From NCBI GenBank assembly GCA_009833045.1, contig WUUP01000001.1, positions 49,440-113,439 on the forward strand: DNA of 64,000 nt. Reading direction: 5' to 3'. The notes below the pieces were generated by a model, which saw nothing but the letters and a program-made list of their open reading frames with translations, was not told where the DNA came from and ran no database searches. Made by a program: the position numbers and the translations under genes. This document shows positions 7,677 to 63,257 of the stretch, in pieces. How positions within the stretch are numbered: position 1 is the first letter of the stretch; each line of letters begins with the position of its first letter. The stretch is from Saprospirales bacterium GYS_P2D. Its GTDB lineage: Bacteria > Bacteroidota > Bacteroidia > Chitinophagales > Saprospiraceae.

Positions 7677-7959
7677 TATCTTTTGTTTAATTCAACTAAA
7701 AGATAAAAATAGATGTAGATGTAAACTATTATTAGAGCTTCAAAATGCAGAAAATCGCCATTTATGGCTACGAAACTTGGTATCTAAAAAAAGAAATCCA
7801 GCTAAATCATAATCCATCATCTATGACTCAACTGGATTCTTGATGCTTTCCATTGGTTTCTTGAGGTGTTCCGATGATTCCTCACATAAAGGTAAAGGGT
7901 TAAGTCACCAAGTATTAAGACATATAGGCTACTCATATACTCTACGGATCACATAAAAA

Positions 7960-7992
7960 AATAGCGACTCTGCATTCAGAATCGCTATTTTC
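7960..7992. terminator. 12-bp inverted repeat hairpin flanked by A7 and T-rich run (bidirectional terminator-like)
   Basis: AATAGCGACTCTG-CATT-CAGAATCGCTATT read directly; lies in an 850-nt gene-free region. Confidence 0.3.
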
Positions 7993-8263
7993 TTATTTAA
8001 AATTTAATCAAATCAAATCCTTGAAAACAAGAATATTACGCTTAACAAAAATTATGAATATGTCGAATAATTGTCATTTCAGCTTGTCTACCCTGTAGAC
8101 GATATGTGGCATTGTCAGACCTGTATCGTCTTATAAATGAGACCTCACGGTAAAATGAGGTCTCGTTACCAAAAAATTGCTTGGCATTTCGGGGTTACTA
8201 ATAGGACAGATTATTCTGTCTTATCCCCTACGGCCAAAATGTATTTTCTTACAGAGTTTCGGG

Positions 8264-8297
8264 CAAAAAAAAAGCCCATCACCTTTGTGATGAGCCG
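8264..8297 (-). terminator. rho-independent terminator of the secreted-protein operon
   Basis: minus-strand reading GCTCATCAC-AAAG-GTGATGGGC followed by T9; about 230 nt downstream of the 8525 stop. Confidence 0.5.
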
Positions 8298-8524
8298 TTA
8301 CCTTTTTGATCTATCGGACGTTGAGATGTAATTATTTGTAACCTTTACTTATTCGACTTATTCATATAGAAAATGTCCGACTGACCAAAGTTTCAATTGA
8401 TTCGGTTGATACGAATATAAAAGCACTCCCTATTATCTTTCTCTACATTATTGTCGGATACTTATCATAGCTAAGAAAAAGTCTGACTTTAACACTATAA
8501 GTGTAAAACGGCTGACATCTGCAC

Positions 8525-10552
8525 TTACCTCTTTTGAGGTAGATTATATATTCTTGGTACAAGTGGGCTCACTATATAGTCTTCAAACTCAAGTGTACCA
8601 AGGCATTCGAATATAGCTCCATGCTGTATATCCAGCATATCATCATCCGTCGAGAGTCCGGTAAGACTGCCTGATACTCCTACATAAAACGAAGAGCCAC
8701 TTCTCAAAAGCATCCCATCATCAGACTCCGAATAAATCATTCCCTGATTATCAAATACAACAGCTGTAGAATCTGAAGTCTCTTCCTGCTCGATGCTGTA
8801 TCCACTGATATCTGTCACATTGATATCGCCTGCATTTTCAAAAGTGGACGCATTGTAAATCCCAATATCAGCATACTGAATAAAGATCTCGCCACTATTA
8901 GTCATTACACTTTGGATACCCGGATCAATGGTCAGATTAGCAAATGCGACAGTCTCGTTATCTGCAATATTATTTTTGTATGAATCGATTTTGAAATTAT
9001 CCGGCTCTAAGTTTCCACGGATACCAGATATTACTAAGAATCCTTGGTTATAAAACTCCAGAGAATTGGCTATCCCTGCACTCACTAATGAATAAAGTAC
9101 TAAAGAGTCATTATTAGTGATAGTACCAATATTGGTCATACCAGCACCTTCGCAGTTATAAACTTCAATTTTTCCATCATTCACTATATGCCCCCCATAA
9201 TTGGCCATAGCAGGTGCACCAGTATTGACTATACTGATATCGATCAGCCCCATTGGACTATTGTAGAGACTATCATAGTTGCCTAATGCGAAATGATAGA
9301 CTCTTTCGATAATGAGTGAGTCTTGATTGGTGAAGAGACCAGCATTGAGCAATCCCCCCGCCTCAATATTATTGATCTCAATCTTACCCTCATTGTATAT
9401 TTCAGCATCTGTGGCATTATAGATACCTGATGCCGCAGCAGCTCTACAGTCATAGATAGAGATATAGCCCTCATTACTTACTAAGTGAGCGTTATAGATA
9501 CCATTTCCCATTGCATCTGAGATGAGTAAAGTATCCTGATTATTGAAGCTACCTTCATTCAGCACAGATACTCCTATCTGCGTATTATCAATTTTTATGT
9601 GTCCTTCATTATTAATGCTACCTGTAGTATATATGCCCGCTTCTTCGATGGTATCCATTTGTATATTACCTATGTTATCCAGACTATCCCAGTTCACGAT
9701 ACCGTATGGGCTCATATTCACCATCTCGATGTATCCCAGATTTTGAAGATATCCATTATTGAGTATACCATCGTGTTCACAGTCATGTAGGATGATGGCT
9801 CCCGTATTATGATTGAATATGCTATCAGAATTGGATATGGCGGCTAGGAGTTCATAGACATTAGAGATGATGATACTATCATGATTATGGATCACGGCTG
9901 AGTTATTTACACCATAGTCTCCCGCACTGTCGATGAGTATCACTCCGTGATTAGTGAGATAACTATTAGATAGATTGATCCCACTATTTTGAGAAGAATA
10001 GGCCTCGAGCCTACCATCCTCATCGATATAAAAGGATAATGGTGATCCACTGACGCCAGTACCACAGTCCTCTATGATCAGGCTACCGTCATGGACCACT
10101 GTGGCAGTCGCATAAGAAAAAAGTCCAGTAGCACTGCAGTCTCGGATAGTCAGGACAGATCTATCGAGCGTCTCAATATGACCATGATTGATAATACCTG
10201 AGCCAGTTGATCCGCTAAGTGTGATACGGCCACCATTAGATAATATACCCCTATTAAGTAAGGCGACAGTAATAGCATCGTTAATTCGTAGACGGCCGGG
10301 TATACCACTCATCAGATCTCTTTGTATTTCGAGATTACCAATATTAGTGATCTCCAGATACTTAGCTCGTGCCGTGCTATCAGGCTTGATGAAGGTATAG
10401 CCGCCTATGATCACAGAGTCATTAGCAGTGGGTACTCCCTGCGGTGACCACGCAGTGGGCTCATGCCAATCAAATCCAGGCTGCACGAGGTGCTTGGTCT
10501 GACAGAGGAGGCTGGTTGAGTACATAATCAGCAAGACAATATATTTCAACAT
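8525..10552 (-). CDS. secreted parallel beta-helix repeat protein
   Basis: 675 aa; signal peptide; dozens of degenerate about 20-aa repeats (GIYN.., N.G.I motifs) typical of right-handed beta-helix proteins; no T9SS CTD. Confidence 0.6.
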   Translation of the reverse strand: MLKYIVLLIMYSTSLLCQTKHLVQPGFDWHEPTAWSPQGVPTANDSVIIGGYTFIKPDSTARAKYLEITNIGNLEIQRDLMSGIPGRLRINDAITVALLNRGILSNGGRITLSGSTGSGIINHGHIETLDRSVLTIRDCSATGLFSYATATVVHDGSLIIEDCGTGVSGSPLSFYIDEDGRLEAYSSQNSGINLSNSYLTNHGVILIDSAGDYGVNNSAVIHNHDSIIISNVYELLAAISNSDSIFNHNTGAIILHDCEHDGILNNGYLQNLGYIEMVNMSPYGIVNWDSLDNIGNIQMDTIEEAGIYTTGSINNEGHIKIDNTQIGVSVLNEGSFNNQDTLLISDAMGNGIYNAHLVSNEGYISIYDCRAAAASGIYNATDAEIYNEGKIEINNIEAGGLLNAGLFTNQDSLIIERVYHFALGNYDSLYNSPMGLIDISIVNTGAPAMANYGGHIVNDGKIEVYNCEGAGMTNIGTITNNDSLVLYSLVSAGIANSLEFYNQGFLVISGIRGNLEPDNFKIDSYKNNIADNETVAFANLTIDPGIQSVMTNSGEIFIQYADIGIYNASTFENAGDINVTDISGYSIEQEETSDSTAVVFDNQGMIYSESDDGMLLRSGSSFYVGVSGSLTGLSTDDDMLDIQHGAIFECLGTLEFEDYIVSPLVPRIYNLPQKR

Positions 10553-25170: not shown

Positions 25171-26184
25171 CTATCTCATGGTATCATGATCTACTATGAT
25201 CATTTTCTTATGTACTTCTTGACCATTAGCGTCTGTGAGGACTACCCAGTAGACACCTTGGGTCAATTCATCCGTATCCATTTTGACCTTTCCCGACTCT
25301 CGAGAAACATTGATCGAGTGTTTCGGTATTTCGTCAAAACCTAACACTTTAATATTCCCTCCTTTTTGAGACGAAAATTCAAAATCTACGTACACATAGT
25401 TATTCTCGACTGCTGGATTAGGAAAAATGGCAAAACTCGGCTTGCCCTTCTTCACTACATCTGCTGCTTTCGCTATAGCGAAATAAGAATATATCGCTAA
25501 ATCTACTGGCTGATCCGAAGTGATAGATCCCTGACTAACTGTACTACGAGCACCACTATAGACAGGTACACTGATATCTGTATCGAGCATAGATATATCC
25601 ACAGTAGCTGGTATAGCCACCCATGACTCCCCGTCAAAGGCTGCAATCGTCAGTTCATCAAGTTCATCCACCATATCAGCCAGATGACTTTTGATTTCCC
25701 AGGTGAGCGTCACTTGCGCTTCACCTGAGCCCGACACACTCCAGTATTCAGTATCACTGAGACGTACGATCTCATTGAGATTCGCCTTAGCTGATATTTC
25801 ATTTGGATCACTGTATGTAAAATCTACTATCACATCCTTAGCCCCGAGAGTAGCCATAGGCCGATACTCTCCGTCATGACCTACAGGATAGACAAAATCT
25901 GTCTTAGTGATATTGCGGATCTTGCCATCTACATAGCCATATGATGTAGCACGACTCCATCTACTCTCACCTGCAAAAGCGAAGTAGCTATCTACTGTCG
26001 AGCGATCTGTATAGACTATGGAGTTCTGACCATTAAAGTCTGTGAAATCATGCTGCCCAAATACGCTCATTTTCCCCTTAGCAGGTAAAACTAACTCTGC
26101 GTGTGCACCAGAAGGTGCCTGAGCACAAAGCATACCTGATATCCCTAAGAGTCCAATAAGCAGCTTATCCTTTATTTTTTTCAT
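25171..26184 (-). CDS. secreted protein with T9SS C-terminal sorting domain
   Basis: 337 aa; signal peptide; C-terminal about 80 aa beta-sandwich CTD pattern (FAIFPNPAVENNYVYVDFEF...GVYWVVLTD..G). Confidence 0.6.
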   Translation of the reverse strand: MKKIKDKLLIGLLGISGMLCAQAPSGAHAELVLPAKGKMSVFGQHDFTDFNGQNSIVYTDRSTVDSYFAFAGESRWSRATSYGYVDGKIRNITKTDFVYPVGHDGEYRPMATLGAKDVIVDFTYSDPNEISAKANLNEIVRLSDTEYWSVSGSGEAQVTLTWEIKSHLADMVDELDELTIAAFDGESWVAIPATVDISMLDTDISVPVYSGARSTVSQGSITSDQPVDLAIYSYFAIAKAADVVKKGKPSFAIFPNPAVENNYVYVDFEFSSQKGGNIKVLGFDEIPKHSINVSRESGKVKMDTDELTQGVYWVVLTDANGQEVHKKMIIVDHDTMR

Positions 26185-26214: not shown

Positions 26215-26241
26215 AGAGAAGGAGCTGTTTACTCCCTCTCT
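26215..26241 (-). terminator. 10-bp hairpin immediately downstream of the collagen-like gene
   Basis: minus strand AGAGAGGGAG-TAAACAG-CTCCTTCTCT (one G-U), followed by moderately T-rich sequence. Confidence 0.3.
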
Positions 26242-26258: not shown

Positions 26259-29200
26259 TTAATAAAGGCCTATCATATGGAATCCATAGACATCCGACCA
26301 AGCTTCCTGAGCATCAGTACGTGCCACACTGATAGTAAATCCTGCATTCGTGATAGCACCTATCTGATTGATAGATAGATTCACCATAGCTTTAGCACGA
26401 TCGGTGATGATGCCATACGGATTGACCGCCTGCATGATATAACACATACCTACTGAGTCAACATCAGTGAAGCTGTAGCGCACGATCATAGATGCATGCG
26501 CACCCATATCATCTTTATCTACTAAATCCTCTACGATCCAAGTCACTGTACCGAAGCAACTGTCTTGGAATGTGTCAGAATCACCTACCTGTACATTCTT
26601 CCAAGAAGGAATTGGGAATTGAGATTTTTTAGCTGCTGTGCCAGCATCTCCTTTTTCACCTTTCTCGCCCTGAGGACCTTGTGGGCCTATCGGACCTTGT
26701 GCTCCAGTAGGACCTGCTGGGCCGGTGAGGCCTTGCTCGCCTTGCGGACCAGTGGCACCCTGTGGGCCCGCCGGACCAACTGCACCAGTGGCACCTTGTG
26801 GACCTGCTGGGCCAGTAGCACCTTGAGGGCCTGCTGGACCTTGAGGACCTGTCGCTCCTTGTGGACCCGCTGGGCCTACTTCACCTTGTGGGCCTTGTGG
26901 ACCAGTTGGACCTTGTGCTCCCGCTGCTCCAGTCGCACCTTGCGGACCTGTAGGGCCTTGTGCTCCCGCTATACCTTGTGGGCCTGCTGGACCAACCTCG
27001 CCTTGTGGACCTTGTGGGCCAGTAGCTCCCTGAGGACCTGTAAGACCTTGTGCTCCCTGAGGACCTGCTGGACCTTGTGGGCCTGTCTCGCCTTGTGGAC
27101 CCGCTGGACCAACCTCTCCTTGCAATCCTTGAGGACCTTGTTCTCCTTGAGGACCTACAGGGCCTTGTGCACCAGTAGCTCCTTGTGGGCCTGCTGGGCC
27201 TTCTGGACCAGTCGCTCCCTGAGGGCCCGCTGGTCCAACTTCTCCTTGGAGTCCTTGTGGACCAGTAGCACCAGTTTCGCCTTGTGGGCCTTGTGGACCT
27301 GTGGCGCCTTGTGGACCTGCTGAGCCTTGTGGACCCGTTTCACCTTGTGGGCCCGCTGGGCCAACTTCTCCTTGCAACCCTTGTGGGCCCTGCTCTCCTT
27401 GTGGACCTTGTGCTCCAGTAGCGCCTTGTGGGCCTTGAGCTCCTTGTGCACCAGTAGCGCCTTGTGGGCCTGCTGGACCAACTTCTCCTTGTGGACCCTG
27501 TGGGCCAACTGCTCCTTGAAGGCCTTGTGGACCTGTGGATCCTTGCGGACCCGCTGGACCTTCTGGGCCAGTCTCCCCCTGAGGACCTGCAGGACCGACC
27601 TCTCCTTGAAGTCCTTGTGGACCTTGCTCACCCTGTGGACCTACAGCACCAGTTGCGCCAATCTCTCCCTGTGGACCTTGCGGACCAACTTCACCTTGGA
27701 TACCTTGCTCTCCTTGTGGACCCTGTGGGCCTACAGCACCAGTTGCGCCAATCTCTCCCTGTGGACCTTGCGGACCAACTTCACCTTGGATACCTTGCTC
27801 TCCTTGTGGACCCTGTGGGCCAACTTCTCCTTGAATGCCCAGTGGACCTTGAGGACCAGTGGCGCCCGTAGCACCAGTTTCTCCTTGGATGCCTTGCTCG
27901 CCTTGTGGACCCTGTGGACCAACTTCTCCTTGGAGTCCCTGTGGACCTTGTTCTCCTTGTGGACCTTGAGGACCAACTTCTCCTTGAATTCCCTGTGGGC
28001 CTACTTCACCTTGAGGACCTACAGCACCAGTTGCGCCAGTCTCACCCTGTGGACCTTGAGGGCCAGTGGCACCAGTTTCTCCCTGAGGACCTTGTGGACC
28101 AACTTCACCTTGAAGTCCTTGTGGACCTTGAGGACCAGTGGCGCCCGTAGCACCAGTTTCTCCTTGGATGCCTTGCTCTCCTTGCGGACCCTGTGGACCA
28201 ACTTCACCTTGGATACCTTGCTCTCCTTGTGGACCCTGTGGGCCAACTTCACCTTGAAGTCCCTGTGGACCTTGAGGGCCAGTGGCTCCAGTTTCACCAG
28301 TTTCTCCTTGGATACCCTGCTCTCCTTGTGGACCCTGTGGGCCAACTTCACCTTGAAGTCCCTGTGGACCTTGAGGGCCAGTGGCTCCAGTAGCTCCAGT
28401 TTCACCTTGGATACCTTGATCGCCTTGTGGACCCTGTGGGCCAACTTCACCTTGAAGTCCTTGTGGACCTTGCTCGCCCTGTGGACCTTGCTCGCCCTGT
28501 GGACCTTGCTCTCCTTGTGGACCTTGTGGACCAACTTCACCTTGAAGTCCTTGTGGACCTTGAGGACCAGTGGCTCCTGTAGCTCCCGTTTCACCTTGGA
28601 TACCTTGCTCTCCTTGCGGACCCTGTGGGCCAACTTCACCTTGAAGTCCCTGTGGGCCTTGTTCACCTTGTGGGCCGACAGCGCCAGTGGCACCAGTCTC
28701 GCCTTGCGGACCTTGTGGACCAACTTCTCCTTGAAGTCCTTGTGGACCTTGAGGACCAGTGGCTCCTGTAGCACCAGTTTCTCCTTGGATACCTTGCTCT
28801 CCTTGCGGACCCTGTGGGCCAACTTCACCTTGAAGTCCCTGTGGACCTTGAGGGCCAGTGGCTCCCGTAGCTCCAGTTTCACCTTGGATACCTTGATCGC
28901 CTTGTGGACCCTGTGGGCCAACCTCGCCTTGAATTCCTTGTGGACCTTGCTCACCCTGTGGGCCTTGAGGACCTACAGCGCCAGTGGCACCAGTTGCTCC
29001 AGTCTCGCCTTGCGGACCCTGTGGTCCAACCTCACCTTGAAGTCCTTGTGGACCTTGGGGACCTTGAGGACCTGCGGCCCCTGTAGCACCAGTTTCTCCT
29101 TGGATACCTTGTTCTCCCTGTGGACCCTGCTCACCCTGTGGGCCAACTTCACCTTGGATACCACGCTCTCCTTGTTCACCCTGTGGGCCTTGAGGACCTA

Positions 29201-30917
29201 CTGCACCAGTGGCGCCAGTCTCTCCTTGTGGACCTTGTGGACCAACTTCTCCTTGGATGCCCTGTGGACCTTGTTCTCCCTGTGGGCCTTGAGGACCTAC
29301 TGCACCAGTGGCACCAGTCTCGCCCTGAGGACCCTGTGGACCCTGTGGTCCAACCTCGCCTTGAAGTCCCTGTGGACCTTGAGGACCAGTGGCTCCCGTA
29401 GCTCCAGTTTCTCCTTGCGGACCTTGTGAGCCAACTTCACCTTGGATACCCTGTGGACCTTGTTCTCCTTGTGGGCCGACAGCGCCAGTGGCACCAGTTG
29501 CTCCAGTCTCGCCTTGCGGACCCTGTGGACCTTGAGGACCAGTGGCTCCCGTAGCTCCAGTTTCTCCCTGAGGACCCTGTGGACCAACTTCACCTTGAAG
29601 TCCTTGTGGACCTTGAGGACCCTGTGGGCCTACCTCGCCTTGAAGTCCCTGTGGACCTTGCGGGCCGACTTCTCCTTGAATTCCTTGTGGGCCTTGCTCA
29701 CCTTGAGCGCCAGTCTCGCCTTGTGGGCCTTGCGGTCCTGCAATTCCTTGTGGGCCTTGTGGGCCTGTTGCACCTTGTGATCCTGCAGGACCTTGAGGAC
29801 CAGCTTCCCCTTGAGGACCTACTGGGCCTTGGATTCCTGCGACACCCTGTGGTCCTTGAGGACCTGTAGCTCCTTGTGCTCCAACTGGGCCTTGAGGGCC
29901 GACAGCGCCAGTGGCACCAGTCTCTCCTTGTGGACCCTGTGGGCCAACTTCCCCTTGGATTCCCTGAGGACCTTGCTCCCCTTGCGGGCCTTGAGGACCG
30001 ATAGCACCAGTGGCGCCAGTATCTCCTTGCGGACCTTGTGGGCCAACTTCACCTTGAAGCCCCTGTGGTCCTTGAGCACCAGTGGCGCCAGTAGCACCAG
30101 TTTCTCCTTGAATACCTTGTTCTCCTTGCGGACCCTGTGGTCCAACTTCACCTTGGACACCTTGCGGACCAGTGGCTCCAGTGGCTCCAGTGGCTCCAGT
30201 TGCTCCTATTAATGAAACTAAGAAGTCAGCTTCTGTTCCTTGATTGCCATTTTTCAACCATACCTCATATGCACTTATTCCAGCAGTACCTTGAACACCT
30301 CTTGGTCCCTCAATCCCTTGTGGGCCTGCAGGACCTTGGATACCTTGTTCTCCTTTAGGCCCCTCTGGACCCTGAGCACCTTGAGCACCAGCTACACCCT
30401 GAGGTCCTTGCTCGCCCTGTGGGCCAGCTGGGCCTTGGATACCTTGTGGTCCTTGTTCGCCTTGTGCTCCTGCTGGACCTTGCATGCCACGTGGACCTTC
30501 TGGACCGGCCGGACCTTGCTCACCTTGTGGTCCTTGTGGACCTACAGTACCAGCAGTATCGATACCCATCATTGTCAGCCAAGAATTGTCAATCAAACAA
30601 TCCCAATATGGATCTTCAGGCGGTCCAAGATTCACTTGAACACAGCTCTCAGTGAGATTGAATATTATCGCACCAGTCAATGGTGTCGGTATGAGATCTC
30701 GCTGCTCAGAGGTCATACGTGTAGGCACGAATGCCTGCGTAGTACTCTCGAGCTCGAGAATAGAACCATCATCTATATCGGCAGGGTCCCCTCCCAATTT
30801 TAGCTGCGCAGAAGCTGAAAACGCTAAAAGCAAGCTCATAGATAATAGTAAAACGGATCGTCTAAATCGGCTAATAAGCGCCTGATCAGACGATGTAAAT
30901 AGTAAGTTTTTCGTCAT
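26259..30917 (-). CDS. giant secreted collagen-like (Gly-X-Y triple-helix repeat) protein
   Basis: 1552 aa; signal peptide; about 95-aa N-domain; about 1300 aa of GXY triplets rich in P/Q/E/T/A; 126-aa Cys-containing C-terminal domain; ATG and frame verified. Confidence 0.85.
26642..30545. repeat. coding low-complexity region: about 430 tandem 9-nt (GXY) triplets with higher-order about 90-99-bp periodicity
   Basis: visible as recurring GGxCCxTGxGG units on the plus strand; spawns many spurious ORFs in other frames. Confidence 0.85.
27641..27820. repeat. perfect 2 x 90-bp tandem duplication inside the collagen-like gene
   Basis: 27641-27730 identical to 27731-27820 (ctacagcaccagttgcgccaatctctccctgtggaccttgcggaccaacttcaccttggataccttgctctccttgtggaccctgtgggc); both copies are in-frame 30-aa units. 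Confidence 0.9.
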
Positions 30918-31162: not shown

Positions 31163-31192
31163 AAAAAAAGGCCACCTACTGGCGACCTTTTT
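31163..31192 (-). terminator. weak hairpin flanked by A7/T5 downstream of flotillin gene
   Basis: AAAAAAA-GGCCACCTACTGGCGACC-TTTTT; only a 4-5 bp stem. Confidence 0.3.
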
Positions 31193-33820: not shown

Positions 33821-35425
33821 GTGGCAGTACTGATCTACTTTATTGTTTTTTACATTCTCCTATCACTGAGCATGTATTTGTTATTCCCAAAAATGGGAAT
33901 CGAAAGCTGGAAAGGGCTGGTACCTGTCCTCAACTTCATGGAGCTCTCTGAGAAGGTCGGGCGCTCTCGCTGGTATGGATTGCTCTTCTTAGTCCCGATT
34001 GTTGCTTTTTTCATCGTGGCAGGATTGGCTGTGGCTACAGTACGTAGTTTTGGCAGAGATTCATTTGGCGAAGCAGCTCTGGCGGTGATCTATCCACCGA
34101 TCAGCTTTTATCGCCTCGCTAAAGATGAAAGCGCTAAGTACGAAGGCCCAATCATCGCTAAAGAGAAAGAGTATCAACAAAAAATAGTCGAGGCTAAAAA
34201 AGCGGGCAACAAAGGACAGTACCAAAAACTCATCGAGAGAAATCCGTATGCCAAGAATGACTTCAGAGAGTGGGTCGAGTCTATTGTGTTTGCAGTATTT
34301 GCAGCTGCATTTATCAGAATGTTTTTAATCGAAGCCTATGTGATCCCTACTCCATCAATGGAAGGCTCATTATTAGTCGGTGATTTCTTATTCGTCAGTA
34401 AGATGAGCTATGGTATCCGTACTCCACAGACTGTAGCGATGGTGCCTCTCCTACACAATAGAGTGCCAGGTCTCGGTACAGAGTCATACTTCAAGAAGCC
34501 ATCACTACCATACTATAGATTACCTGCACTGTCTAAAGTCAAAAGAAATGACCCGATAGTATTCAATTGGCCAGTGGGAGATAGTGTATATATCACGAGT
34601 CGTCGTAGCTATACCGTAGGCCAAGTGAATAGAGATCTGAATAACTACATCAGTCAAGATCCTGAGCTCCGTCAAAAAGTTCAGCGAAAAGATTATGTAG
34701 TAAGGCCTAACGATAAAAAAGATCACTATATAAAGAGATGCATAGGAGCACCGGGAGATAGCCTCCAGATCATCAATCGCCAGGTATATATAAACGGCCA
34801 GCCAGGTGAAAATCCAGAGAATATACAATTCACCTATCTCTCAAATCTCAATGGCACAAATGTCACCCGCAGAGACCTGGAGAAAGTCGGCCTTTCTCCA
34901 TCGGACTTTGGTATACAACAAAATGGTCAAGCCTACATGGTACTGACAGATGCTGAAAAACAGGCGATTAAGGCTATTGATAACAAAGTACAATTCACTA
35001 ATTACCCATTCCAATCAAGACCAAAGGAGCTTTTCCCGCATGATCCTCAGCACTTCCCCAAGTGGACAGTGGACAATTATGGGCCAATATGGGTGCCCGC
35101 TAAAGGCGCTACCACTACTCTGACACCACAAAACATAGCACTCTATCGCCGGATAATCAGTGTATATGAAGGCAATGATCTGGAGGTGAAAAATGGACAG
35201 ATCTTCATCAATGGAGAGCAAACTAACCAATATACATTCAAGCAGGACTACTATTGGGCGATGGGTGACAATAGGCACAACTCAGAAGACTCAAGGATGT
35301 GGGGGTTTGTGCCATTTGATCATATGGTCGGAAAGCCGCTATTCATTTGGTTTAGCACCAAAGATGGTAGCTTATTCAATGGTATCAGATGGAATCGTAT
35401 ATTTAAGTCAGCCACTAAAGACTAA
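33821..35425 (+). CDS. lepB: signal peptidase I (long Bacteroidota-type)
   Basis: 534 aa; catalytic Ser box PTPSMEGSLLVGDFLFVSK, box D/E GDNRHNSEDSRMWGFVP. Confidence 0.8.
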   Translation: MAVLIYFIVFYILLSLSMYLLFPKMGIESWKGLVPVLNFMELSEKVGRSRWYGLLFLVPIVAFFIVAGLAVATVRSFGRDSFGEAALAVIYPPISFYRLAKDESAKYEGPIIAKEKEYQQKIVEAKKAGNKGQYQKLIERNPYAKNDFREWVESIVFAVFAAAFIRMFLIEAYVIPTPSMEGSLLVGDFLFVSKMSYGIRTPQTVAMVPLLHNRVPGLGTESYFKKPSLPYYRLPALSKVKRNDPIVFNWPVGDSVYITSRRSYTVGQVNRDLNNYISQDPELRQKVQRKDYVVRPNDKKDHYIKRCIGAPGDSLQIINRQVYINGQPGENPENIQFTYLSNLNGTNVTRRDLEKVGLSPSDFGIQQNGQAYMVLTDAEKQAIKAIDNKVQFTNYPFQSRPKELFPHDPQHFPKWTVDNYGPIWVPAKGATTTLTPQNIALYRRIISVYEGNDLEVKNGQIFINGEQTNQYTFKQDYYWAMGDNRHNSEDSRMWGFVPFDHMVGKPLFIWFSTKDGSLFNGIRWNRIFKSATKD

Positions 35426-36353: not shown

Positions 36354-38270
36354 ATGAGCTTGATCGATAATCGGATGGAGAGAAAAAATCACTTCTCAAG
36401 AGGAATTTTACTGGCATTTATGACATTGCTAAGCACGATGCTCACAGCCCAAAAAGTCATCCCAGGAGAATGGATCATCAAATCTACAGATCCTACTTTC
36501 GGCGCCAAGGCAAAAAAGAATAGCCAAATATCTGAAGTGAAATCAATATTTGGAGAATTGGGTCTATATCTCATCGTGACTTCTGAAGAAAGGCCTATAA
36601 ATCAGATCAAGAAGAGCCTCAAATCCACTCAAATAGATGGTGCCTACCCAAATCAACTTATCGAGCCTCGCTATACACCTGACGACCCTGATTTCCCCGG
36701 ACAGTGGGCTGCCACTCAGATAGGCATGCCTGAAATATGGGACGTCACTACAGGAGGTCAGGCGCCCAATGGTGACGATATCGTGGTCGCCATATTTGAC
36801 GATGGATATGACATCACTCATCGAGACTATGCCGACAATATTTGGACCAATGAAGGAGAGATACCTGACGATGGCATAGACAATGACGGCAATGGCTACA
36901 TAGATGACTATCTCGGTTGGAATGCCACTACCGACAATGACGAACATAGAAATCGTACCCATGGCACTGCCGTAGCAGGCATCATCGGCGCTGTCGGGGA
37001 TAATGGTGTCTTAGTAGCTGGGATGAACTGGGACGTAAAACTCATGCTCACCAGCGGAGGTAGAGAAGCAGGATTTAACATAGCGGATATCGTCAGAGCC
37101 TATGAGTATATCTATACTCAGCGCAGAATATACAATGAGACACAGGGCGAATCTGGTGCATATGTCGTCGTATCTAATTATTCTGGAGGCGCTTCGGGAT
37201 TATTTCCTGAGGATTTTCCAAGTTGGTGTGAGATCTATGATTTATTAGGATCAGTGGGAGTGATCAATTTCACCTCGGCCCCTAATGCGGATGTCGATGT
37301 AGACACCGAGGGGGATCTCCCCTCTACCTGCCTATCCGACTATCTGATCATCGTCACCAATACAGACCGACAAGATAATAAGGTACAAGCTGCAGGCTAT
37401 GGTGCACAGAGTGTAGATCTGGGTGCTCCAGGTGATGAGATCTATACCACCGGTCTCAATGGAGAGCTCAATACTTCATTTAGCGGTGCGTCAGCCTCTG
37501 CTCCTGTGGTCGCTGGTGTTGCATCTCTACTCTATAGTGTCATCTGTGATGAAGCATATGAGCTGTCTATCACAGATCCCAGGAGTATCGTCCTCGAGCT
37601 ACGTCGTACATTATTGACCACTGTGAGTCCTGTACCAGAGCTCATAGGTAGATCTACGACTGGAGGTCGCCTCGATGCGGCAGCTGCTTTCGCAGAATGG
37701 CGTAGTATCAAAGGTATCGCTGACTGCTGTAAAGTAGACATCAGTGATCTCACTATCATTGATGAATCCTGCATAGAGGCTACTGACGGTCAGCTAAACA
37801 TTATGACGGATACTACTGATACCCGTAGTGCTCTGAGCTATACACTCTCTCCTATGTCCGGCATGAGTGTATCTAATCGAACCGGTGAATTTAGGTTTCT
37901 GGAAGCCGGAAACTATGAACTAAGCGTGACGACCGATCGTGACATGACCTGTCGGGCAGATACTACATTAAGTATAGCTGCGGGCATTGACGAGTGTAGC
38001 TTTGGAGAGTTTCAGATCAGCGGGATACTGCCTAATCCTACATCGGACTTCATCAATGTCAGTTTCGAGCTTGACGAGTTAAAGCATTTTGAAATTGTCA
38101 TTTTTGACTATGCGAGTCGATTGATCTATCGCAAACCCATCATACCAAGCAGCACCTCAGCTCGATCAGAGCAGATAGATGTATCCGATTTCCCAGATGG
38201 CATCTACTATATCGGCATACGAGCGAATGATTTAGTTGATTTCGTCCCCTTCTCCGTATTTCACCCTTAG
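36354..38270 (+). CDS. subtilisin-like serine peptidase (S8) with T9SS C-terminal sorting domain
   Basis: 638 aa; catalytic triad contexts AIFDDGYD (Asp), HGTAVAGIIGA (His), GASASAPVVAGVASLL (Ser); C-terminal ILPNPTSDFINVSFEL...GIYYIGIRAND CTD. Confidence 0.8.
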   Translation: MSLIDNRMERKNHFSRGILLAFMTLLSTMLTAQKVIPGEWIIKSTDPTFGAKAKKNSQISEVKSIFGELGLYLIVTSEERPINQIKKSLKSTQIDGAYPNQLIEPRYTPDDPDFPGQWAATQIGMPEIWDVTTGGQAPNGDDIVVAIFDDGYDITHRDYADNIWTNEGEIPDDGIDNDGNGYIDDYLGWNATTDNDEHRNRTHGTAVAGIIGAVGDNGVLVAGMNWDVKLMLTSGGREAGFNIADIVRAYEYIYTQRRIYNETQGESGAYVVVSNYSGGASGLFPEDFPSWCEIYDLLGSVGVINFTSAPNADVDVDTEGDLPSTCLSDYLIIVTNTDRQDNKVQAAGYGAQSVDLGAPGDEIYTTGLNGELNTSFSGASASAPVVAGVASLLYSVICDEAYELSITDPRSIVLELRRTLLTTVSPVPELIGRSTTGGRLDAAAAFAEWRSIKGIADCCKVDISDLTIIDESCIEATDGQLNIMTDTTDTRSALSYTLSPMSGMSVSNRTGEFRFLEAGNYELSVTTDRDMTCRADTTLSIAAGIDECSFGEFQISGILPNPTSDFINVSFELDELKHFEIVIFDYASRLIYRKPIIPSSTSARSEQIDVSDFPDGIYYIGIRANDLVDFVPFSVFHP

Positions 38271-38438: not shown

Positions 38439-38512
38439 GGCTCCGTAGCTCAACTGGATAGAGTACTTGACTACGAATCAAGCGGTTGCAGGTTCGACTC
38501 CTGCCGGAGTCA
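38439..38512 (+). tRNA. tRNA-Arg (anticodon ACG)
   Basis: 74 nt cloverleaf folded by hand: acceptor GGCTCCG/CGGAGTC (one G-U), D arm GCTC/GAGT, anticodon stem CTTGA/TCAAG with loop CTACGAA, T arm GCAGG-TTCGACT-CCTGC, discriminator A; CCA not encoded. Confidence 0.9.
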
Positions 38513-38591
38513 CTACTTTGTGCGAAGCAATAAAAAGCTTCATAGATTTAAAAAATAGACCTCCAACAGGAGAACATCAAAATAGAAAGCG

Positions 38592-40327: not shown

Positions 40328-42070
40328 ATGCACATACGTATCCTAAGATGGGCCACAGCGGGCATCTGCATGCTCATTATTTGGTCATTTTCTGCTAATC
40401 CTCCACAACGCACCACGGGCGCTCCTGGAGAAGGAGGATGTGACAATGCAGGCTGTCATATAGGTGGCGCAGGCATCATCGACGCCACTGTCAATATCAA
40501 AGGTCTCCCCCCTCAAATCCGACCTAATACAGCCTATCAAATCGAAGTAGAAATCATCAAGATCTCGGGACCTGCAGAGCGTGCAGGATTTCAGATGACA
40601 CTTCTCGGAGATGATCAGAGTAGCATAGGGAGCTTCTCCAATAATGGTGAAAACACAGCCATATCCTCTACAGCAGATCGAGAATACTTAGAGCACCAGC
40701 CGGCTCAGTTTTTTAGACAGATGGATACCATACGATATTCATCTCTATGGAGTCTTGATGAGGAAACTAATAGTGACTCCATCTATCTCTACCTCGGCGC
40801 TAACATTGCCAATGGCAATAACAATCGATCAGGAGATCTGCCACTTTTTGCTCGGCAGTCTTATGCCATCACACAGGATACAGGGATACTAATAAGCGCT
40901 ACCATCGAAGATTCTGGCTGTGAAGAAGCGAATGGATCTATAGTCGTAGCAATAAGTGGGGGGCTGCCGCCCTACTCTATCACTTGGAGTACGGGGGATA
41001 CAACACTATCCATTTCAGATTTACCAGTTGGCAGCTATGATGTAACGGTAGTCGACGCAAATGAGGATAGTCTATCAGAGGCATTTATGGTTGGAGCCCA
41101 AGTAGATACAGTTTCTCCTATAATATTTTGTACTGCAGATACATTCTATATATCTACATGTGCCCCCTTCAGCTATAGCGTACCTACTGCGACAGATGAC
41201 TGTGGAGATGTTGATATAAGGCTCCTATCAGGCCGGGGTATCAATCAACCCTACCCCGTCGGTCTATCTGTCGAAATATACGAAGCTACTGACGCTTCTG
41301 GTAATAAGAGTCAGTGCTCAATCTATATCAATAATCAACCAGAGATCACATCCACAATAAATGTCATCCAACCGCAGTGTCACAATGACTCGATAGGCTT
41401 CATAGATCTTGAGATCACGGGTAGCAATCCTCCCTATGAGATCTCAAGCGAACTCTTAGGTGAAGACAATAGTCTACCAAAAGGTGTACATACCATCACA
41501 ATATCAGACGCCTCTGGCTGCAGCTTTACAGAGACAGTCGAAATCATAAGACCGCAAGAACTCAATCTGACTATCGATAGTGTAAATGATAACACAAATA
41601 GCGATGATGGCAATGGGCAAATACTCATCAGTGTCACGGGCGGTGTCATGCCATACGAGTATAGCTGGACGATAAATGGGCAGTTCTTCTCTGATGAGTC
41701 CGATCTGACTGGTTTATTCAGCGGTGTATATCAGCTCACAGTCAGTGATAGCTATGGCTGTCTAATAGTTTCTGACACTGTCTTAGTCGACTTAGTGTCA
41801 TCCATCTATGATCCACAGCTGAGCGCTACATTCACTTTATTTCCTAACCCCTCCAATGATCAAAAGGAAGTGTTCCTAACTTCTCCTATCTTAAATCAGG
41901 TAACATCTATAGAGCTCTTTGATCTATTGGGTCAATCTGTGCTGACGAATAAGTTTCAAAGCAAGCAAGATAAGCTCGCAATCAGCCTTACTAATATTCA
42001 CGAAGGACTACATTACATGAAAATCACACTCAGTGATGATCGCCATGTCATACTACCTCTGGTTCATTAA
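40328..42070 (+). CDS. secreted SprB-repeat/HYR-like adhesin-type protein with T9SS C-terminal domain
   Basis: 580 aa; three GG.(M/P)PY.Y.W SprB-type repeats, DDCGDV HYR-like segment, C-terminal FTLFPNPSNDQKEVFL...GLHYMKITL CTD; N-terminal CDNAGCH motif. Confidence 0.6.
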   Translation: MHIRILRWATAGICMLIIWSFSANPPQRTTGAPGEGGCDNAGCHIGGAGIIDATVNIKGLPPQIRPNTAYQIEVEIIKISGPAERAGFQMTLLGDDQSSIGSFSNNGENTAISSTADREYLEHQPAQFFRQMDTIRYSSLWSLDEETNSDSIYLYLGANIANGNNNRSGDLPLFARQSYAITQDTGILISATIEDSGCEEANGSIVVAISGGLPPYSITWSTGDTTLSISDLPVGSYDVTVVDANEDSLSEAFMVGAQVDTVSPIIFCTADTFYISTCAPFSYSVPTATDDCGDVDIRLLSGRGINQPYPVGLSVEIYEATDASGNKSQCSIYINNQPEITSTINVIQPQCHNDSIGFIDLEITGSNPPYEISSELLGEDNSLPKGVHTITISDASGCSFTETVEIIRPQELNLTIDSVNDNTNSDDGNGQILISVTGGVMPYEYSWTINGQFFSDESDLTGLFSGVYQLTVSDSYGCLIVSDTVLVDLVSSIYDPQLSATFTLFPNPSNDQKEVFLTSPILNQVTSIELFDLLGQSVLTNKFQSKQDKLAISLTNIHEGLHYMKITLSDDRHVILPLVH

Positions 42071-52786: not shown

Positions 52787-54066
52787 CAAAAAGTAATAGT
52801 CCTATAATAGCCATCATTGGTTTAGGCTATGTAGGATTACCTCTGAGCATAGCTCTATCAGAGCACTATAGTGTTATCGGATTTGATATTAATTCTACTC
52901 GTATCGAATCATTGCATCGTCATATCGATCTCAATAGAGAAATACCTACATCTATTCTCCAATCATCAAAAATCCAGTTTACAAATAATAAAGAGGATCT
53001 TAAAAAGGCCAATATCTATATAATAGCTGTGCCTACTGATATTGATGCAGATGACAGTCCTGACCTTTCGTATCTGATCAAAGCCAGCGAGATGGTAGGA
53101 GGATTAATTTCTCATGGGGATATAGTCATCTATGAATCGACCGTATATCCTGGGTGTACAGAGGAAGTTTGTCTGCCCATTTTAGAAGAGTTATCCGGAT
53201 TAAAGTCTCCGATTGAATTTAGCATTTCATACTCTCCTGAGCGGATAGTACCAGGCGAGCTAATGGAAAGCTTAAAATCCTCAATCAAAATAATAGGATC
53301 TCAAAATGACGCCACTTCTCTAAGTGTAAAATCAATCTACGATTCTTTCTTATATCATGAAGCTCAAATCGTATCGAGCATTATGGTAGCAGAAGCCGCA
53401 AAAGTGGTCGAGAATACTCAGCGTGACATTAATATCTCATTGATCAATGAGCTATCCGTGATATTTGATAAGATCGGAATATCCACCCATGAAGTCATAG
53501 AGGCGGCAAGTACTAAATGGAATTTTCATCCATACTCTCCGGGCTTAGTGGGAGGACATTGTATCAGTGTGGATCCTTTTTATCTGATACACAAGGCTAA
53601 AAAGGTAGGACATCTACCACAGGTCATCGCTGCTGGACGGAGAGTCAATGAATATATCCCGAAGCACATAGCTACTAAAGTCACTCAAGAGCTAATCAAG
53701 CAGGGAAAAAATCCTGGAAACACAAAGGTCCTAGTCATGGGATTAGCATTCAAAGAGAACGTCAGTGATATCAGGAATAGCAAAGTGATAGATCTCATGA
53801 ACTATCTAAATGACTATTCTATCTGCATCGATACGCTCGATCCACATGTAGCAAGCTATCAAAATAGTCGAAATCACTATGCGCAGATCTCCGATATTAG
53901 GGCTGAATATGATGCCATCATATTGTGTGTAGCTCATGATGAGTTTAAAGACTTGAGTGAACAATGGTTTGAAAAGGTCAGTATAGGTGCCACCACTCTC
54001 TTTGATGTCAAAGGAATATACCGGAAACAGCTTACCGATGAATCCATCAAATACTGGACACTGTGA
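52768..54066 (+). CDS. UDP-N-acetyl-D-glucosamine 6-dehydrogenase-like nucleotide-sugar dehydrogenase (WbpA-like)
   Basis: 432 aa; [12 protein letters not shown] Rossmann, catalytic Cys region GGHCISVDP. Confidence 0.8.
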
Positions 54067-55157
54067 TAGTCAAAATGGCATATCTCGATCGTGAATACCA
54101 ATCTATCAAAGGCGAAATAGATAAAGCTTGGGAGGTAACTGTGCGGAATGGTCAATTTATCGGAGGCGATGCAGTGAACGCCTTTGAATCACAATTGTCA
54201 AAGTACCTATCAGATTCTTACATCGTGAGCTGTGCCAATGGCACAGATGCCTTATTGGCAGCATATTTAGCACTTGACATCAATGCAGGAGACGAAGTCA
54301 TTATGCCAGCATATGGCTATATATCTGCCTATGAGATGTGTAAATTAATCGGTGCGATACCGGTACTTGTAGACATTAATGATTACTACCTCATTGATGT
54401 CAAACAAATCGAAAATAAAATCTCCTCAAAAACTAAAGCTATAGTTGTTCAACACTTGTTTGGACAAGTAGCCAATATGGATCCAATACTTGAGCTAAGA
54501 AATAGGTATAGTATTAAGATAATCGAAGACACTGCACAGTCCATCGGGAGTAATTATCGATGGAAAATGGCTGGCACCATTGGTGATATTGGCACTCTTT
54601 CTTTTTTCCCAACCAAGAATTTAGGGTGCTATGGCGACGGCGGAGCTATCATCACGAATTCGCAAGAAATGGTGGCAAGCTTATCGCAAATCTGCAAGCA
54701 TGGGCAATCAAAAAAATATAACCATGAAAGAATAGGAATGAACAGTCGTCTGGATACGCTGCAAGCCAGTATTCTTTCTGCAAAGCTGCCGCATTTATCA
54801 AAATGGAACGCTCGAAGAACGTCAATTGCTCAAATCTATTCCGAGTCATTCGCCTCGCTGGAGAATATCGCTACGCCATCCATAGCGACCGACTCTACAC
54901 ATACCTATCATCAATATACCATAAAGACCCAGCAAAGAGATCAGCTACAGGCTTATCTCAAAAAGCGAGGTATACAATCTACCATATACTACCCCAAGCC
55001 CATTCATGAGCAAAGAATTCACCAACCTGAAGGCAGCTATCCGATGAGCGAAAGAATGGCCTGCGAATCATTGTCGTTGCCTATATCACCATTTTTAAAG
55101 TATGAAGAAATAGAGATGGTAATTAAATCAATAGTAAACTGGTCAAGAAATGAATGA
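54063..55157 (+). CDS. DegT/DnrJ/EryC1/StrS-family PLP-dependent sugar aminotransferase (WbpE-like)
   Basis: 364 aa; family-typical architecture incl. SFFPTKNLG Lys region. Confidence 0.8.
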   Translation: MIVKMAYLDREYQSIKGEIDKAWEVTVRNGQFIGGDAVNAFESQLSKYLSDSYIVSCANGTDALLAAYLALDINAGDEVIMPAYGYISAYEMCKLIGAIPVLVDINDYYLIDVKQIENKISSKTKAIVVQHLFGQVANMDPILELRNRYSIKIIEDTAQSIGSNYRWKMAGTIGDIGTLSFFPTKNLGCYGDGGAIITNSQEMVASLSQICKHGQSKKYNHERIGMNSRLDTLQASILSAKLPHLSKWNARRTSIAQIYSESFASLENIATPSIATDSTHTYHQYTIKTQQRDQLQAYLKKRGIQSTIYYPKPIHEQRIHQPEGSYPMSERMACESLSLPISPFLKYEEIEMVIKSIVNWSRNE

Positions 55158-55632
55158 TTACTACGTACATGAGTCAAGTATCATTGATGAGGGAGCAATC
55201 ATAGGTACAGGCACTAAAATTTGGCATTATTGCCATGTTTCCTCAACTGCAACGATCGGAAAGAATTGTGTTCTGGGTCAAAATGTATATATAGGCCCCA
55301 ATGTGGTCATAGGAAATGGAGTGAAAATCCAAAACAACGTTTCCGTATATGACGGTGTGACTATAGAAGACGATGTATTTATCGGTCCATCTGTAGTGTT
55401 CACTAATGTTATGCTTCCTCGAGCAAACAAGAATCAAAAAGACTGTTTCCAGCCTACTTTAATTAAAAATGGAGCAAGTATCGGCGCCAATACTACCATA
55501 ATATGTGGTAATACTATAGGAAGTGATAGCTTCATAGGTGCTGGCAGCGTAGTCACCAAGGACATCCTCGCTGGAGAAATCTGGTATGGTAATCCCGCCG
55601 TATATCAAGGCAAAGTAGATCAATCGAGATAG
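55150..55632 (+). CDS. hexapeptide-repeat sugar N-acetyltransferase (WbpD-like)
   Basis: 160 aa; left-handed beta-helix hexapeptide repeats. Confidence 0.7.
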   Translation: MNDYYVHESSIIDEGAIIGTGTKIWHYCHVSSTATIGKNCVLGQNVYIGPNVVIGNGVKIQNNVSVYDGVTIEDDVFIGPSVVFTNVMLPRANKNQKDCFQPTLIKNGASIGANTTIICGNTIGSDSFIGAGSVVTKDILAGEIWYGNPAVYQGKVDQSR

Positions 55633-55660
55633 TTTGAATACATATTAGTATTATTGTGAT

Positions 55661-56455
55661 ATGAAAACCTACGCCTTGATAGGAGCTGCAGGCTATATAG
55701 CGCCGAGACATATGGCGGCGATCCGTGATACCGGAGGGCGCTTAGTAGCTGCATTAGATCCGCATGACAGCGTAGGTATTTTAGACAGCTACTTCCCGAA
55801 GTGCGATTTTTTCACAGAATTTGAGCGTTTTGATCGACATCTTGACAAGCTCCGTAGAAAGGGAGAAAAAGTAGACTATCTGGTCATCTGCTCTCCTAAC
55901 TACCTACATGATGCTCACTGCCGATATGGCCTGCGCAATGATATGGACGTCATCTGCGAAAAGCCGCTTGTCATCAATGAGTGGAACGAAGCACCACTGA
56001 GAGCACTAGAAAAAGAAACGGGACGAAAAATCAATGTGGTCATGCAGCTCCGCCTACATCAAGCTGTCAAAACGCTAAAAGAGCAAGTAGACACTGACCC
56101 ACCAGATAAAATATACGATGTCCAACTCACATATCATACTCCACGAGGCAACTGGTATCACCATAGCTGGAAGGGAGATATCAGCAAAAGTGGAGGCATC
56201 AAGCTAAATATCGGCATTCACTTTTTTGACATTTTGGAATGGATATTTGGCAAGAAAAAGAAAGAAGAAATATTTTTAGAAAATAATATCACAGCTCGAG
56301 GAAAATCGATCTACCAAAGAGCCAGCGTAAAATGGGATCTATCTATCGATCAAAATTTGACTAAGCAGAGGTCATTAACCGTTGATGGTGAGGAGGTAAA
56401 TTTTACTGAGGGATTTGAGGATCTGCATCGGGTGTGGTATGAGAAACATCTATAA
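55661..56455 (+). CDS. Gfo/Idh/MocA-family oxidoreductase (WbpB-like)
   Basis: 264 aa; N-terminal Rossmann YALIGAAGYIAPRH, EKP motif. Confidence 0.75.
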   Translation: MKTYALIGAAGYIAPRHMAAIRDTGGRLVAALDPHDSVGILDSYFPKCDFFTEFERFDRHLDKLRRKGEKVDYLVICSPNYLHDAHCRYGLRNDMDVICEKPLVINEWNEAPLRALEKETGRKINVVMQLRLHQAVKTLKEQVDTDPPDKIYDVQLTYHTPRGNWYHHSWKGDISKSGGIKLNIGIHFFDILEWIFGKKKKEEIFLENNITARGKSIYQRASVKWDLSIDQNLTKQRSLTVDGEEVNFTEGFEDLHRVWYEKHL

Positions 56456-56456
56456 A

Positions 56457-57212
56457 ATGTGGGAAAGATTACACAAATTTATATTGAGAAAACTAAATTA
56501 CGCTAATACCGATTTTGACTCTAATGGAGAGAATTGGTTATTACAAAGTCTACATAAATTGAGTAGCGATCCCCTCACGATATTTGATGTTGGGGCAAAT
56601 AAGGGTGATTACACTTTTTTATGCAATAGATCACTAACCATCCGCAATATTCCACATCAGATCTTTGCCTTCGAACCAAATAACGACAACTACGTCAAAT
56701 TGGTTGATAGATTTTCTGGCAATAAAGCAATACAAATTGAAAAGTATGGCATAGGAGAAAAAACAACAGAATCTGAATTAATCATTCCTTTAGAACGCAA
56801 TTCACTCGCCTCAATATTTTCTAGAGATATAGAGCATTTCAAATCGGACAATATTAGAATTGATAAAATTATGATCGAGTCAATCGACAACTTTATGAGT
56901 AACAACAGAATTCATAAAATAGATTTTTTAAAAATTGATATAGAAGGAAACGAATTATCCGCTATAAAAGGTGCTACAAAGGCATTAGATAATAAAAGAA
57001 TATCACTCATTCAATTCGAATTCGGTGGGACGATGATAGACTCAAGAACATTTTTCAGAGATATTTTTGATTTCTTAAATTCTAAGGGATATCGTCTTGG
57101 AAGATTAATGAAAAATAGAATTTATTGGTATGATAACTATTCTGAGATTTATGAACAATTTACATATGCTAACTATGTAGCATTACCTCAAAAATCACAC
57201 ATCACACTTTAA
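56457..57212 (+). CDS. FkbM-family methyltransferase
   Basis: 252 aa from ATG at 56457 (MWERL), 1 nt after the upstream TAA; DVGANKGD and KIDIEGNE motifs; the ORF track extends it to 56415. Confidence 0.6.
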   Translation: MWERLHKFILRKLNYANTDFDSNGENWLLQSLHKLSSDPLTIFDVGANKGDYTFLCNRSLTIRNIPHQIFAFEPNNDNYVKLVDRFSGNKAIQIEKYGIGEKTTESELIIPLERNSLASIFSRDIEHFKSDNIRIDKIMIESIDNFMSNNRIHKIDFLKIDIEGNELSAIKGATKALDNKRISLIQFEFGGTMIDSRTFFRDIFDFLNSKGYRLGRLMKNRIYWYDNYSEIYEQFTYANYVALPQKSHITL

Positions 57213-57221
57213 ACTTTCATC

Positions 57222-57968: not shown

Positions 57969-57970
57969 AT

Positions 57971-58828: not shown

Positions 58829-58877
58829 TTTTGATTTTCCAATTTATAATTTGAGAAAATTTTAATTAGACTCAAGC

Positions 58878-63256: not shown

Positions 63257-63257
63257 T

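Follow-up and report, generated by a model that had tools for sequence, protein, structure and literature searches.

A stretch of 64,000 nucleotides from Saprospirales bacterium GYS_P2D (contig WUUP01000001.1; the whole stretch is referred to here as the window) was analyzed in this study, with particular attention to a minus-strand gene at 26259..30917 that encodes a collagen-like protein of 1552 amino acids (aa). The explanation that best accounts for the results as a whole, to which we assign a probability of about 0.5, is that this protein forms a Sec-exported homotrimeric rod of approximately 0.37 µm, encoded by a two-gene cassette specific to Saprospiraceae, and that the rod is anchored or exported by means of a partner protein that carries a sorting domain of the type IX secretion system (T9SS). 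That the gene specifies a genuine secreted, trimeric collagen-like fibre of a Saprospiraceae family is very probable, while the specific model of partner anchoring and export, taken by itself, is tentative and falls somewhat short of even odds.

The collagen-like gene and its family

An earlier reading of the window, made without database searches (hereafter the sequence-only reading), had described the gene as a single intact 4.66-kb open reading frame (ORF) on the minus strand. The ORF listing agrees, with one uninterrupted frame that opens with ATG and whose product ends in ...FHMIGLY. Gly-X-Y tracts were mapped by a script as maximal runs on the translation, and the protein is divided as follows:

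30807..30917 (-): predicted signal peptide, aa 1-37, read from the translation, with a long n-region containing RFRR, an h-region and a predicted signal peptidase I (SPase I) cut between SASA and Q
30552..30806 (-): N-terminal globular domain, aa 38-122, ~85 aa after the predicted cleavage, 2 Cys
30273..30551 (-): collagen run 1, aa 123-215, 31 Gly-X-Y triplets (Gly-X-Y run script and Pfam)
30207..30272 (-): helix interruption, aa 216-237, 22 aa (Gly-X-Y run script)
26634..30206 (-): collagen run 2, aa 238-1428, 397 unbroken Gly-X-Y triplets (Gly-X-Y run script)
26262..26633 (-): C-terminal globular domain, aa 1429-1552, 124 aa, 2 Cys, followed by the stop codon at 26259-26261

The helical part sums to 428 triplets (1284 residues) split by the single 22-aa break, in line with the previous estimate of about 430 triplets with one short break. 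A Pfam scan, which had been proposed as a check, identified Collagen (PF01391, E 3.6e-199, 7 matched stretches) as the sole Pfam family on the 1552-aa protein. The end domains as first described were correct in part: the C-terminal domain (C-domain) does contain Cys, but the N-terminal domain (N-domain) comprises ~85 aa after cleavage and not 95. The presence of a signal peptide is likewise supported, with a basic n-region, a hydrophobic core and a c-region, after which SASA is followed by QLKLGG at the predicted cut. Homologues share this layout, and the Gln after the cut is invariant across their alignment, which fits the Q-rule for signal peptidase I substrates in Bacteroidetes (PMC5837995).

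The rod is strongly acidic. Its net helix charge is -98 per chain and the mature chain (~143 kDa) has a pI of 4.05, as expected from the polyanionic rod described before. The accompanying statement that no Lys or Arg occurs in the helix until the last two triplets holds only as a strong depletion, because the helix contains R143, K188, R206 and R585 besides K1419 and K1422 (6/1284 residues). Only three KGE/KGD triplets were found in the rod, two of them at its extreme C-terminal end (GEKGEKGD). Position X is mostly occupied by P, E and A (P 44%) and position Y by Q, T and V (Q 58%), and GPQ makes up 36% of the triplets in run 2. In the host-guest data of Persikov and Brodsky, the residues that most favour the helix, hydroxyproline aside, include P, E and A at X and Q at Y. 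The composition of the rod is favourable for a triple helix, which would be trimeric. At 0.286 nm per residue, the two helical segments together would extend over 367 nm, within the 350-370 nm calculated previously.

The G+C content rises from ~0.43 to 0.55-0.59 across the collagen gene, as expected for a coding sequence rich in GGN and CCN codons. Within 26.5-30.8 kb, the opposite strand and the other frames contain stop-free ORFs as long as 700 aa, for example at 27327..29429 (+); they result from the GGN/CCN repeat and might be mistaken for genes.

An alignment scan of one genome per GTDB species recovered 34 loci with the N-domain, all but two of which are titled Saprospiraceae metagenome-assembled genomes (MAGs), and the best of which is 75% identical to the window in this domain, so that the source genome is absent from the representatives scanned. 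In six loci (L001-L005 and L007) the neighbours are the flotillin, lepB, hypothetical and S8-protease genes, as in the window, and these loci consequently represent the orthologous locus. Both synteny and homologues place the family in Saprospiraceae, in agreement with the Bacteroidota host suggested at the outset; a literature search found no paper linking Saprospiraceae with collagen-like proteins. Searches with the N-domain alone returned eight metagenomic proteins with 45-73% identity, all of them truncated or frameshifted fragments, all continuing into Gly-X-Y triplets and all carrying a precomputed PF26696 annotation. The alignment of the window N-domain with these PF26696-annotated proteins contains 23 invariant columns, the link to PF26696 being made through the annotation of the relatives.

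Family members differ widely in length, as illustrated by the following loci:

L009: 747 aa, 167 triplets, on a 7.05-Mb chromosome
L034: 938 aa, 204 triplets
L013: 971 aa, 194 triplets
L021: 1421 aa, 376 triplets
L006: 2815 aa, 841 triplets
L017: more than 3467 aa by ORF extension, with a full length of 3813 aa by gene call on the same 844-kb contig

Across the family, rods range from 167 to more than 1100 triplets and complete members from 747 to 3813 aa, and several MAGs contain two copies of the collagen gene. The window protein is thus a mid-sized member of its family and not unique. Its rod chemistry is not shared throughout: the rod of L006 contains 181 Lys, 170 Asp and 171 KGD/KGE triplets, and that of L020 has a net charge of -183. 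A polyanionic rod poor in Lys and Arg is lineage-specific and not a family trait. The composition of the rod is unconserved while the end domains are conserved, which fits a spacer role with free composition and length.

The interruptions of the helix are modular across the family. In the window, L001, L016, L029 and L032, the interruption has the motif SAYExWLxxGNxGTEADFLxSL; in most other members it is a 28-aa unit rich in Asp, Asn and Gly (CWDxNxNGxxDxxEDxNGDGxxNxxDC), and in three members it reads ITxTTDNGNGTFTFTF.... The 28-aa Cys-bracketed unit was observed in L006, L011-L013, L015, L017, L019-L021, L025 and L034, with up to 21 copies per protein, and resembles calcium-binding loops.

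The C-domain is conserved over ~120 aa after the last triplet (matches to E 1.4e-20, and tblastn matches to L006, L034 and L021), with R107 and W114 invariant in the alignment. An exhaustive search of 1.84 billion representative proteins yielded 17 relatives, most of those read following collagen triplets, and a word-indexed search of 5.8 billion proteins with the C-domain as a single query returned none. A model generated with AlphaFold2 (AF2) from 13 sequences predicts an eight-strand beta-sandwich with a predicted local distance difference test (pLDDT) value of 91 and a predicted template modelling (pTM) score of 0.84. Its nearest structural neighbours include the LKA1 gp49 tailspike, Helix pomatia agglutinin (an H-type lectin), white spot syndrome virus envelope proteins, the R1 pyocin fibre, discoidin I and the AP22 gp53 fibre; no C1q/TNF chain was present among them. 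The tail-fibre, tailspike and lectin neighbours are trimeric. Foldseek comparison with PDB and BFVD gave nothing below E 1e-3, and the best meaningful matches were the R1 pyocin fibre, H-type lectins and a Cellulophaga phage tail fibre. The modelled C-domain thus appears to bear a weak, though consistent, resemblance to fibre-tip or lectin-like beta-sandwiches.

Pfam and NCBIfam searches with the isolated N-domain, break and C-domain returned no family, the Pfam copy searched being one without PF26696. Profiles of the three retrieved only chance or collagen-tract matches among PDB sequences; the N-domain has no match in PDB, PHROG or NCBIfam, the C-domain none in PHROG, and the break motif none in PDB or Pfam. 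Together with its flanking triplets, the break motif does match PHROG tail and tail-fibre families (best E 4.2e-10). The N-domain core aligns with the N-terminal part of a >859-aa protein on a viral contig (hhalign probability 96.6%, E 5.9e-10), encoded at 7881-10457 (+) of L036 (IMG/VR contig IMGVR_UViG_3300042566_001108), four genes downstream of a tape-measure gene. For the N-domain core, the break motif and the fold of the C-domain, the nearest relatives appear to lie among phage fibre modules. At its N-terminus the L036 protein has a hydrophobic stretch resembling a signal peptide, an unusual feature among virion proteins. The protein might be encoded by the phage and secreted, or the end of the contig might be host DNA.

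A partner gene with a T9SS sorting domain

The next ORF downstream of the collagen gene lies on the same strand after a gap of 74 nt:

25171..26184 (-): partner gene, 337 aa, with a signal peptide, a ~230-aa core and a T9SS type-A C-terminal sorting domain (CTD)

The CTD is recognized by PF18962 (E 4.5e-7) and TIGR04183 (E 6.2e-6). Homologues of the partner (26-30% identity, E 1e-35 to 1e-44) occupy the next downstream position in L006, L009, L013, L021, L034 and L035, so that, with the window included, the linkage is found in 7/7 complete genomic cases. With the partner as seed, a metagenome scan identified ten strong loci; eight of these, together with one partial match, have enough upstream DNA to be informative. 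In all nine of these contigs the collagen C-domain is located immediately upstream of the partner on the same strand, and seven of them continue from there in Gly-X-Y triplets up to the contig start.

Among 5.8 billion proteins, 25 belong to the partner family; 14 of them match PF18962, and none is annotated with anything besides the CTD. In the AF2 model of the partner (pLDDT 60) only the CTD is confidently predicted, and the partner profile found chance matches or a weak CTD match only among PDB sequences. A weak match of the partner to Phage_P2_GpU (E 0.038) was rejected as chance, since one of the 25 members alone shows it. T9SS proteins of 1549 to 2866 aa contain distant relatives of the partner core directly before the CTD, a position that is the end nearest the cell after CTD processing. 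The core motif, FxFPxGAN..YxP..IS...AxYY...EYW.V......VTLxW....L..L.V..WNG..W, was observed in L047 (4330-12930), L048 (6446-11095), L050 (2897-11155) and L051 (3-5684), and the core seems to represent a domain that is widespread among surface proteins of Bacteroidota and lacks an annotation.

The collagen-like protein itself has no T9SS CTD: the 1552-aa sequence has no match to PF18962, TIGR04183 or TIGR04131 in Pfam and NCBIfam, and 0/18 family C-domains match the T9SS CTD models of NCBIfam. The possibility that the C-domain is a cryptic CTD was rejected, given that no CTD model matches it and that its comparison with the partner profile has an hhalign probability of 0.4%. The sequence-only reading had rightly reported the lack of a CTD and had left the export route beyond Sec open; what it missed was the adjoining CTD gene at 25171..26184, which bears directly on export. 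Two further T9SS cargoes are encoded in the window, a subtilase (36354..38270) and a SprB-repeat protein (40328..42070), giving three T9SS-CTD proteins within 17 kb. The organism evidently possesses a T9SS.

The genes around this pair include udk, a nucleoside transporter, rimM, flotillin, lepB, the subtilase, ftsY, lepA, a GH20 gene and a two-component system, and no phage genes were found within ~15 kb of the collagen gene. Flanking genes vary between loci of the family, the T9SS partner alone being constant. Two hairpins were located next to the collagen gene:

26215..26241 (-): hairpin in the 74 nt that separate the collagen gene from the partner, a pattern match only, resembling a weak terminator or attenuator
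31165..31192 (-): strong hairpin of terminator type that follows the upstream flotillin/SPFH gene and marks where the AT-rich leader (~250 nt) of the collagen gene begins

The signal peptidase I gene (33821-35425, +) encodes an unusually long protein of 534 aa, in which an N-terminal DUF5684 is fused to the S26 peptidase domain; this long form is conserved at 72-76% identity in the syntenic MAG loci. Positions 54000-64000 have a low G+C content (0.30-0.37 against ~0.43 elsewhere) and harbour a glycan biosynthesis cluster with a DegT-type aminotransferase, three FkbM methyltransferases, a GT11 fucosyltransferase-like protein, three GT2 glycosyltransferases and an S-adenosylmethionine (SAM) methyltransferase, which looks like an O-antigen or capsule-type island. 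A tRNA-Arg (ACG) at 38439-38513 (+) is the only Rfam/ARAGORN match in the window, in which no rRNA was identified.

A proposed anchored fibre and its alternatives

In the model that we propose, the collagen-like protein would be exported by Sec and its signal peptide cut between A37 and Q38. Three C-domains might then join as a trimeric knob beside the only KGE/KGD cluster of the rod (GEKGEKGD), which would set the register, and the helix would zip from the knob in the C-to-N direction; C-terminal nucleation of collagen folding and the stabilizing role of KGE/KGD salt bridges are known from other work (PMC11923368). The N-domain may be the proximal docking module, binding to a surface-attached partner, a role proposed because its core is common to the N-terminus of a phage fibre-like protein. 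The partner, exported and attached to the surface through its T9SS CTD, would serve as the anchor, and possibly as the export ticket, for a fibre that lacks a CTD of its own. A precedent for a partner-anchored collagen nap is provided by BclA, whose N-terminal domain docks onto the basal-layer protein BxpB (PMC10470788). The result would be a nap of long, acidic fibres rich in Gln, Pro and Thr on the filament surface, where the distal C-terminal knob could make lectin-like contacts for adhesion to particles, algae or other cells and the length of the rod (167 to >1100 triplets in the family) would set its reach.

A bolder form of this model is a two-component, T9SS-dependent fibre, in which a CTD-less collagen trimer of 0.2 to >1 µm across the family crosses the outer membrane and is tethered by hitch-hiking on its CTD-bearing partner, the fibre itself being composed of phage-tail-fibre-like modules (the docking N-domain, the break motif and the tip-like knob). 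We consider this form unlikely.

Several points weigh against the anchored fibre in general. We infer the triple helix, trimerization, surface location and interaction with the partner alike. The partner core is poorly modelled (pLDDT 60) and has no annotated relatives, and the hairpin between the two genes may partly uncouple their expression. The phage link comes from one viral contig, whose protein has a signal-peptide-like N-terminus. To our knowledge there is no precedent for a CTD-less protein that crosses the outer membrane on a T9SS cargo. The polarity could also be reversed, with the C-domain proximal, given that the trimerization domain of Scl2 is N-terminal.

This last point leads to a doubtful alternative, in which the same fibre is formed and the partner is a distal tip adhesin or an assembly chaperone, or in which the C-domain is proximal and the N-domain exposed. 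The partner gene directly follows the fibre gene, as gene 38 follows fibre gene 37 in T-even phages, and the N-terminal V domain of Scl1 and Scl2 is both distal and the driver of trimerization; no result of this analysis fixes the polarity. The position of the partner core in giant T9SS proteins, however, adjoins the CTD and hence the cell-proximal end. The structural neighbours of the C-domain include C-terminal parts of tail fibres and tailspikes, as well as lectins, and the N-domain core matches the N-terminal end of the phage fibre-like protein, taken here by assumption to be the docking end; both speak against this alternative.

The trimers might instead be shed as a matrix or sheath component that forms a mesh or sheath around Saprospiraceae filaments, which we regard as decidedly unlikely. 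Saprospiraceae include filamentous and sheathed forms, a rod with a net charge of -98 per chain would suit a hydrated matrix, and cargo with a type-A CTD can also be released. Such a role has been proposed for the collagen-like protein of Trichodesmium. That bacterium is likewise filamentous and has a 383-triplet collagen (PMC2443231). However, rod charge is not conserved across the family, and the strict conservation of two end domains together with a dedicated partner suggests specific docking over bulk matrix.

A tail fibre of a prophage, tailocin or contractile injection system, or a remnant of one, is very improbable. The sequence-only reading had dismissed a tail fibre because no phage genes are nearby; the genomic context indeed contains none, but it had not recognized that the nearest relatives of the modules appear to be phage fibres, namely the PHROG tail-fibre families matched by the break motif, the tail-module protein of the viral contig homologous to the N-domain core and the fibre tips nearest to the C-domain fold. 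Against this origin, the protein has a Sec signal peptide with the same layout in its homologues, whereas the assembly of virion proteins is cytoplasmic; neither the N- nor the C-domain matches a PHROG; and among the differing flanks of the family loci it is the T9SS partner that stays constant.

Repetitive DNA also raises the question of assembly. The repeats of the collagen tract are degenerate, with periods of 9 to 288 bp in Tandem Repeats Finder (TRF) that mostly match at 60-88%, apart from one 90-bp unit present 2.1 times at 99%; the longest exact repeat within the gene is 92 bp and none reaches 101 bp. Both flanking proteins are present in a public collection of 15 billion proteins, on a single 1.26-Mb NCBI contig, although the collagen-like protein itself is absent from that collection. 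Short-read MAG and metagenome contigs almost always break inside the collagen gene of this family, so that most of its entries in public protein sets are stubs of the N- or C-terminus, some carrying tails derived from adapters. The family is therefore badly under-represented in protein databases, short-read assemblies breaking systematically within its genes. An assembly artefact is unlikely in view of the uninterrupted 4.66-kb frame that joins N- and C-domains each conserved elsewhere, the short exact repeats and the 1.26-Mb source contig, and the exact repeat number rests on the assembly as given. Since the same architecture is intact on large contigs (among them the 7.05-Mb chromosome record, an 844-kb contig and a 207-kb contig), a collapsed, expanded or chimeric tract in a non-functional gene, to which the repeats, the broken assemblies of relatives and the missing database entry might point, is the most improbable of the explanations.

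Comparison with known systems

Bacterial collagens are known mainly as short adhesins or spore naps of Gram-positives and a few pathogens. The Saprospiraceae, abundant in aquatic habitats and activated sludge, appear to encode rods equal to, or several times longer than, vertebrate fibrillar collagen. If displayed on the surface, these could underlie attachment, filament cohesion or sheath formation in Saprospiraceae, and they would raise the question of how a CTD-less rod of ~0.4 to 1 µm crosses the outer membrane. Hitch-hiking on the partner, if true, would be an undescribed mode of T9SS export and anchoring and would establish the fibre as a new class among bacterial surface appendages. A literature search combining collagen-like proteins with type IX secretion found nothing relevant. 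The family is also a source of natural collagens free of hydroxyproline, GPQ-rich and polyanionic in some members and KGD/KGE-rich in others, that are of interest for folding studies and recombinant collagen design.

Length alone is not new. The window protein had been called exceptionally long, against characterized bacterial collagens said to have tens to about 100 triplets, a range that leaves out the 383 uninterrupted triplets of Trichodesmium erythraeum, whose Gly-X-Y run begins at residue 2 (PMC2443231, 2008). Bacterial collagen chains of up to 6000 aa are cited in a 2025 paper (PMC11923368), and relatives in the present family reach 2815 and 3813 aa, which qualifies the description as exceptionally long. 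Trichodesmium, likewise a filamentous aquatic bacterium, has an uninterrupted tract comparable to that of the window protein (383 versus 397 triplets) and belongs to a different phylum.

Scl1, Scl2 and Legionella Lcl are surface-exposed collagen-like proteins of bacteria that have a globular end domain, as the window protein would be. Three NCBIfam models (NF038329, NF038330 and NF046116) matched far above their cut-offs, and the best stretches listed for them all lie inside Gly-X-Y tracts, that of NF046116 (Lcl) at residues 259-475. Unlike Scl, the window protein has no LPXTG, hydrophobic tail or V domain; unlike Lcl, it lacks the C-terminal glycosaminoglycan (GAG)-binding domain, its C-domain having no match in NCBIfam; and it is 4 to 10 times longer than these proteins.

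SprB-type T9SS filaments are, as the proposed fibre would be, very long surface filaments of T9SS-bearing bacteria, and a SprB-repeat T9SS protein is encoded in the window. SprB, however, has its own CTD and beta-rich repeats, whereas the window protein is a CTD-less collagen helix. Collagen-containing phage tail fibres (PHROGs 13286, 15437, 14726, 4440 and others) have the interruption SAYExWLxxGNxGTExxFLxSL beside collagen triplets and a similar layout, in which a collagen shaft joins an N-terminal docking module to a C-terminal tip with a beta-sandwich fold. The window gene differs from them in its Sec signal peptide, housekeeping neighbours, pairing with a T9SS cargo and much longer shaft.

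In its likely mode of action, the family may be most similar to BclA/BxpB of the Bacillus anthracis exosporium, in which a trimeric collagen filament with a short N-terminal docking domain and a C-terminal knob is fixed to the surface by a separate partner. Rod length varies in BclA, where it sets the depth of the nap, and Thr is frequent in Y. The defining C1q-like domain of BclA is lacking: the BclA knob is C1q/TNF-like, whereas the C-domain of the window protein has no C1q/TNF match. BclA has tens to ~100 triplets compared with 428 here and more than 1100 in relatives, no similarity extends outside Gly-X-Y, and BclA coats Gram-positive spores whereas a diderm surface is concerned here, with a partner that is a T9SS cargo. 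What would be new relative to all these systems is the combination, in a collagen-like surface fibre of bacteria, of unrelated end domains with a T9SS partner dedicated to it.

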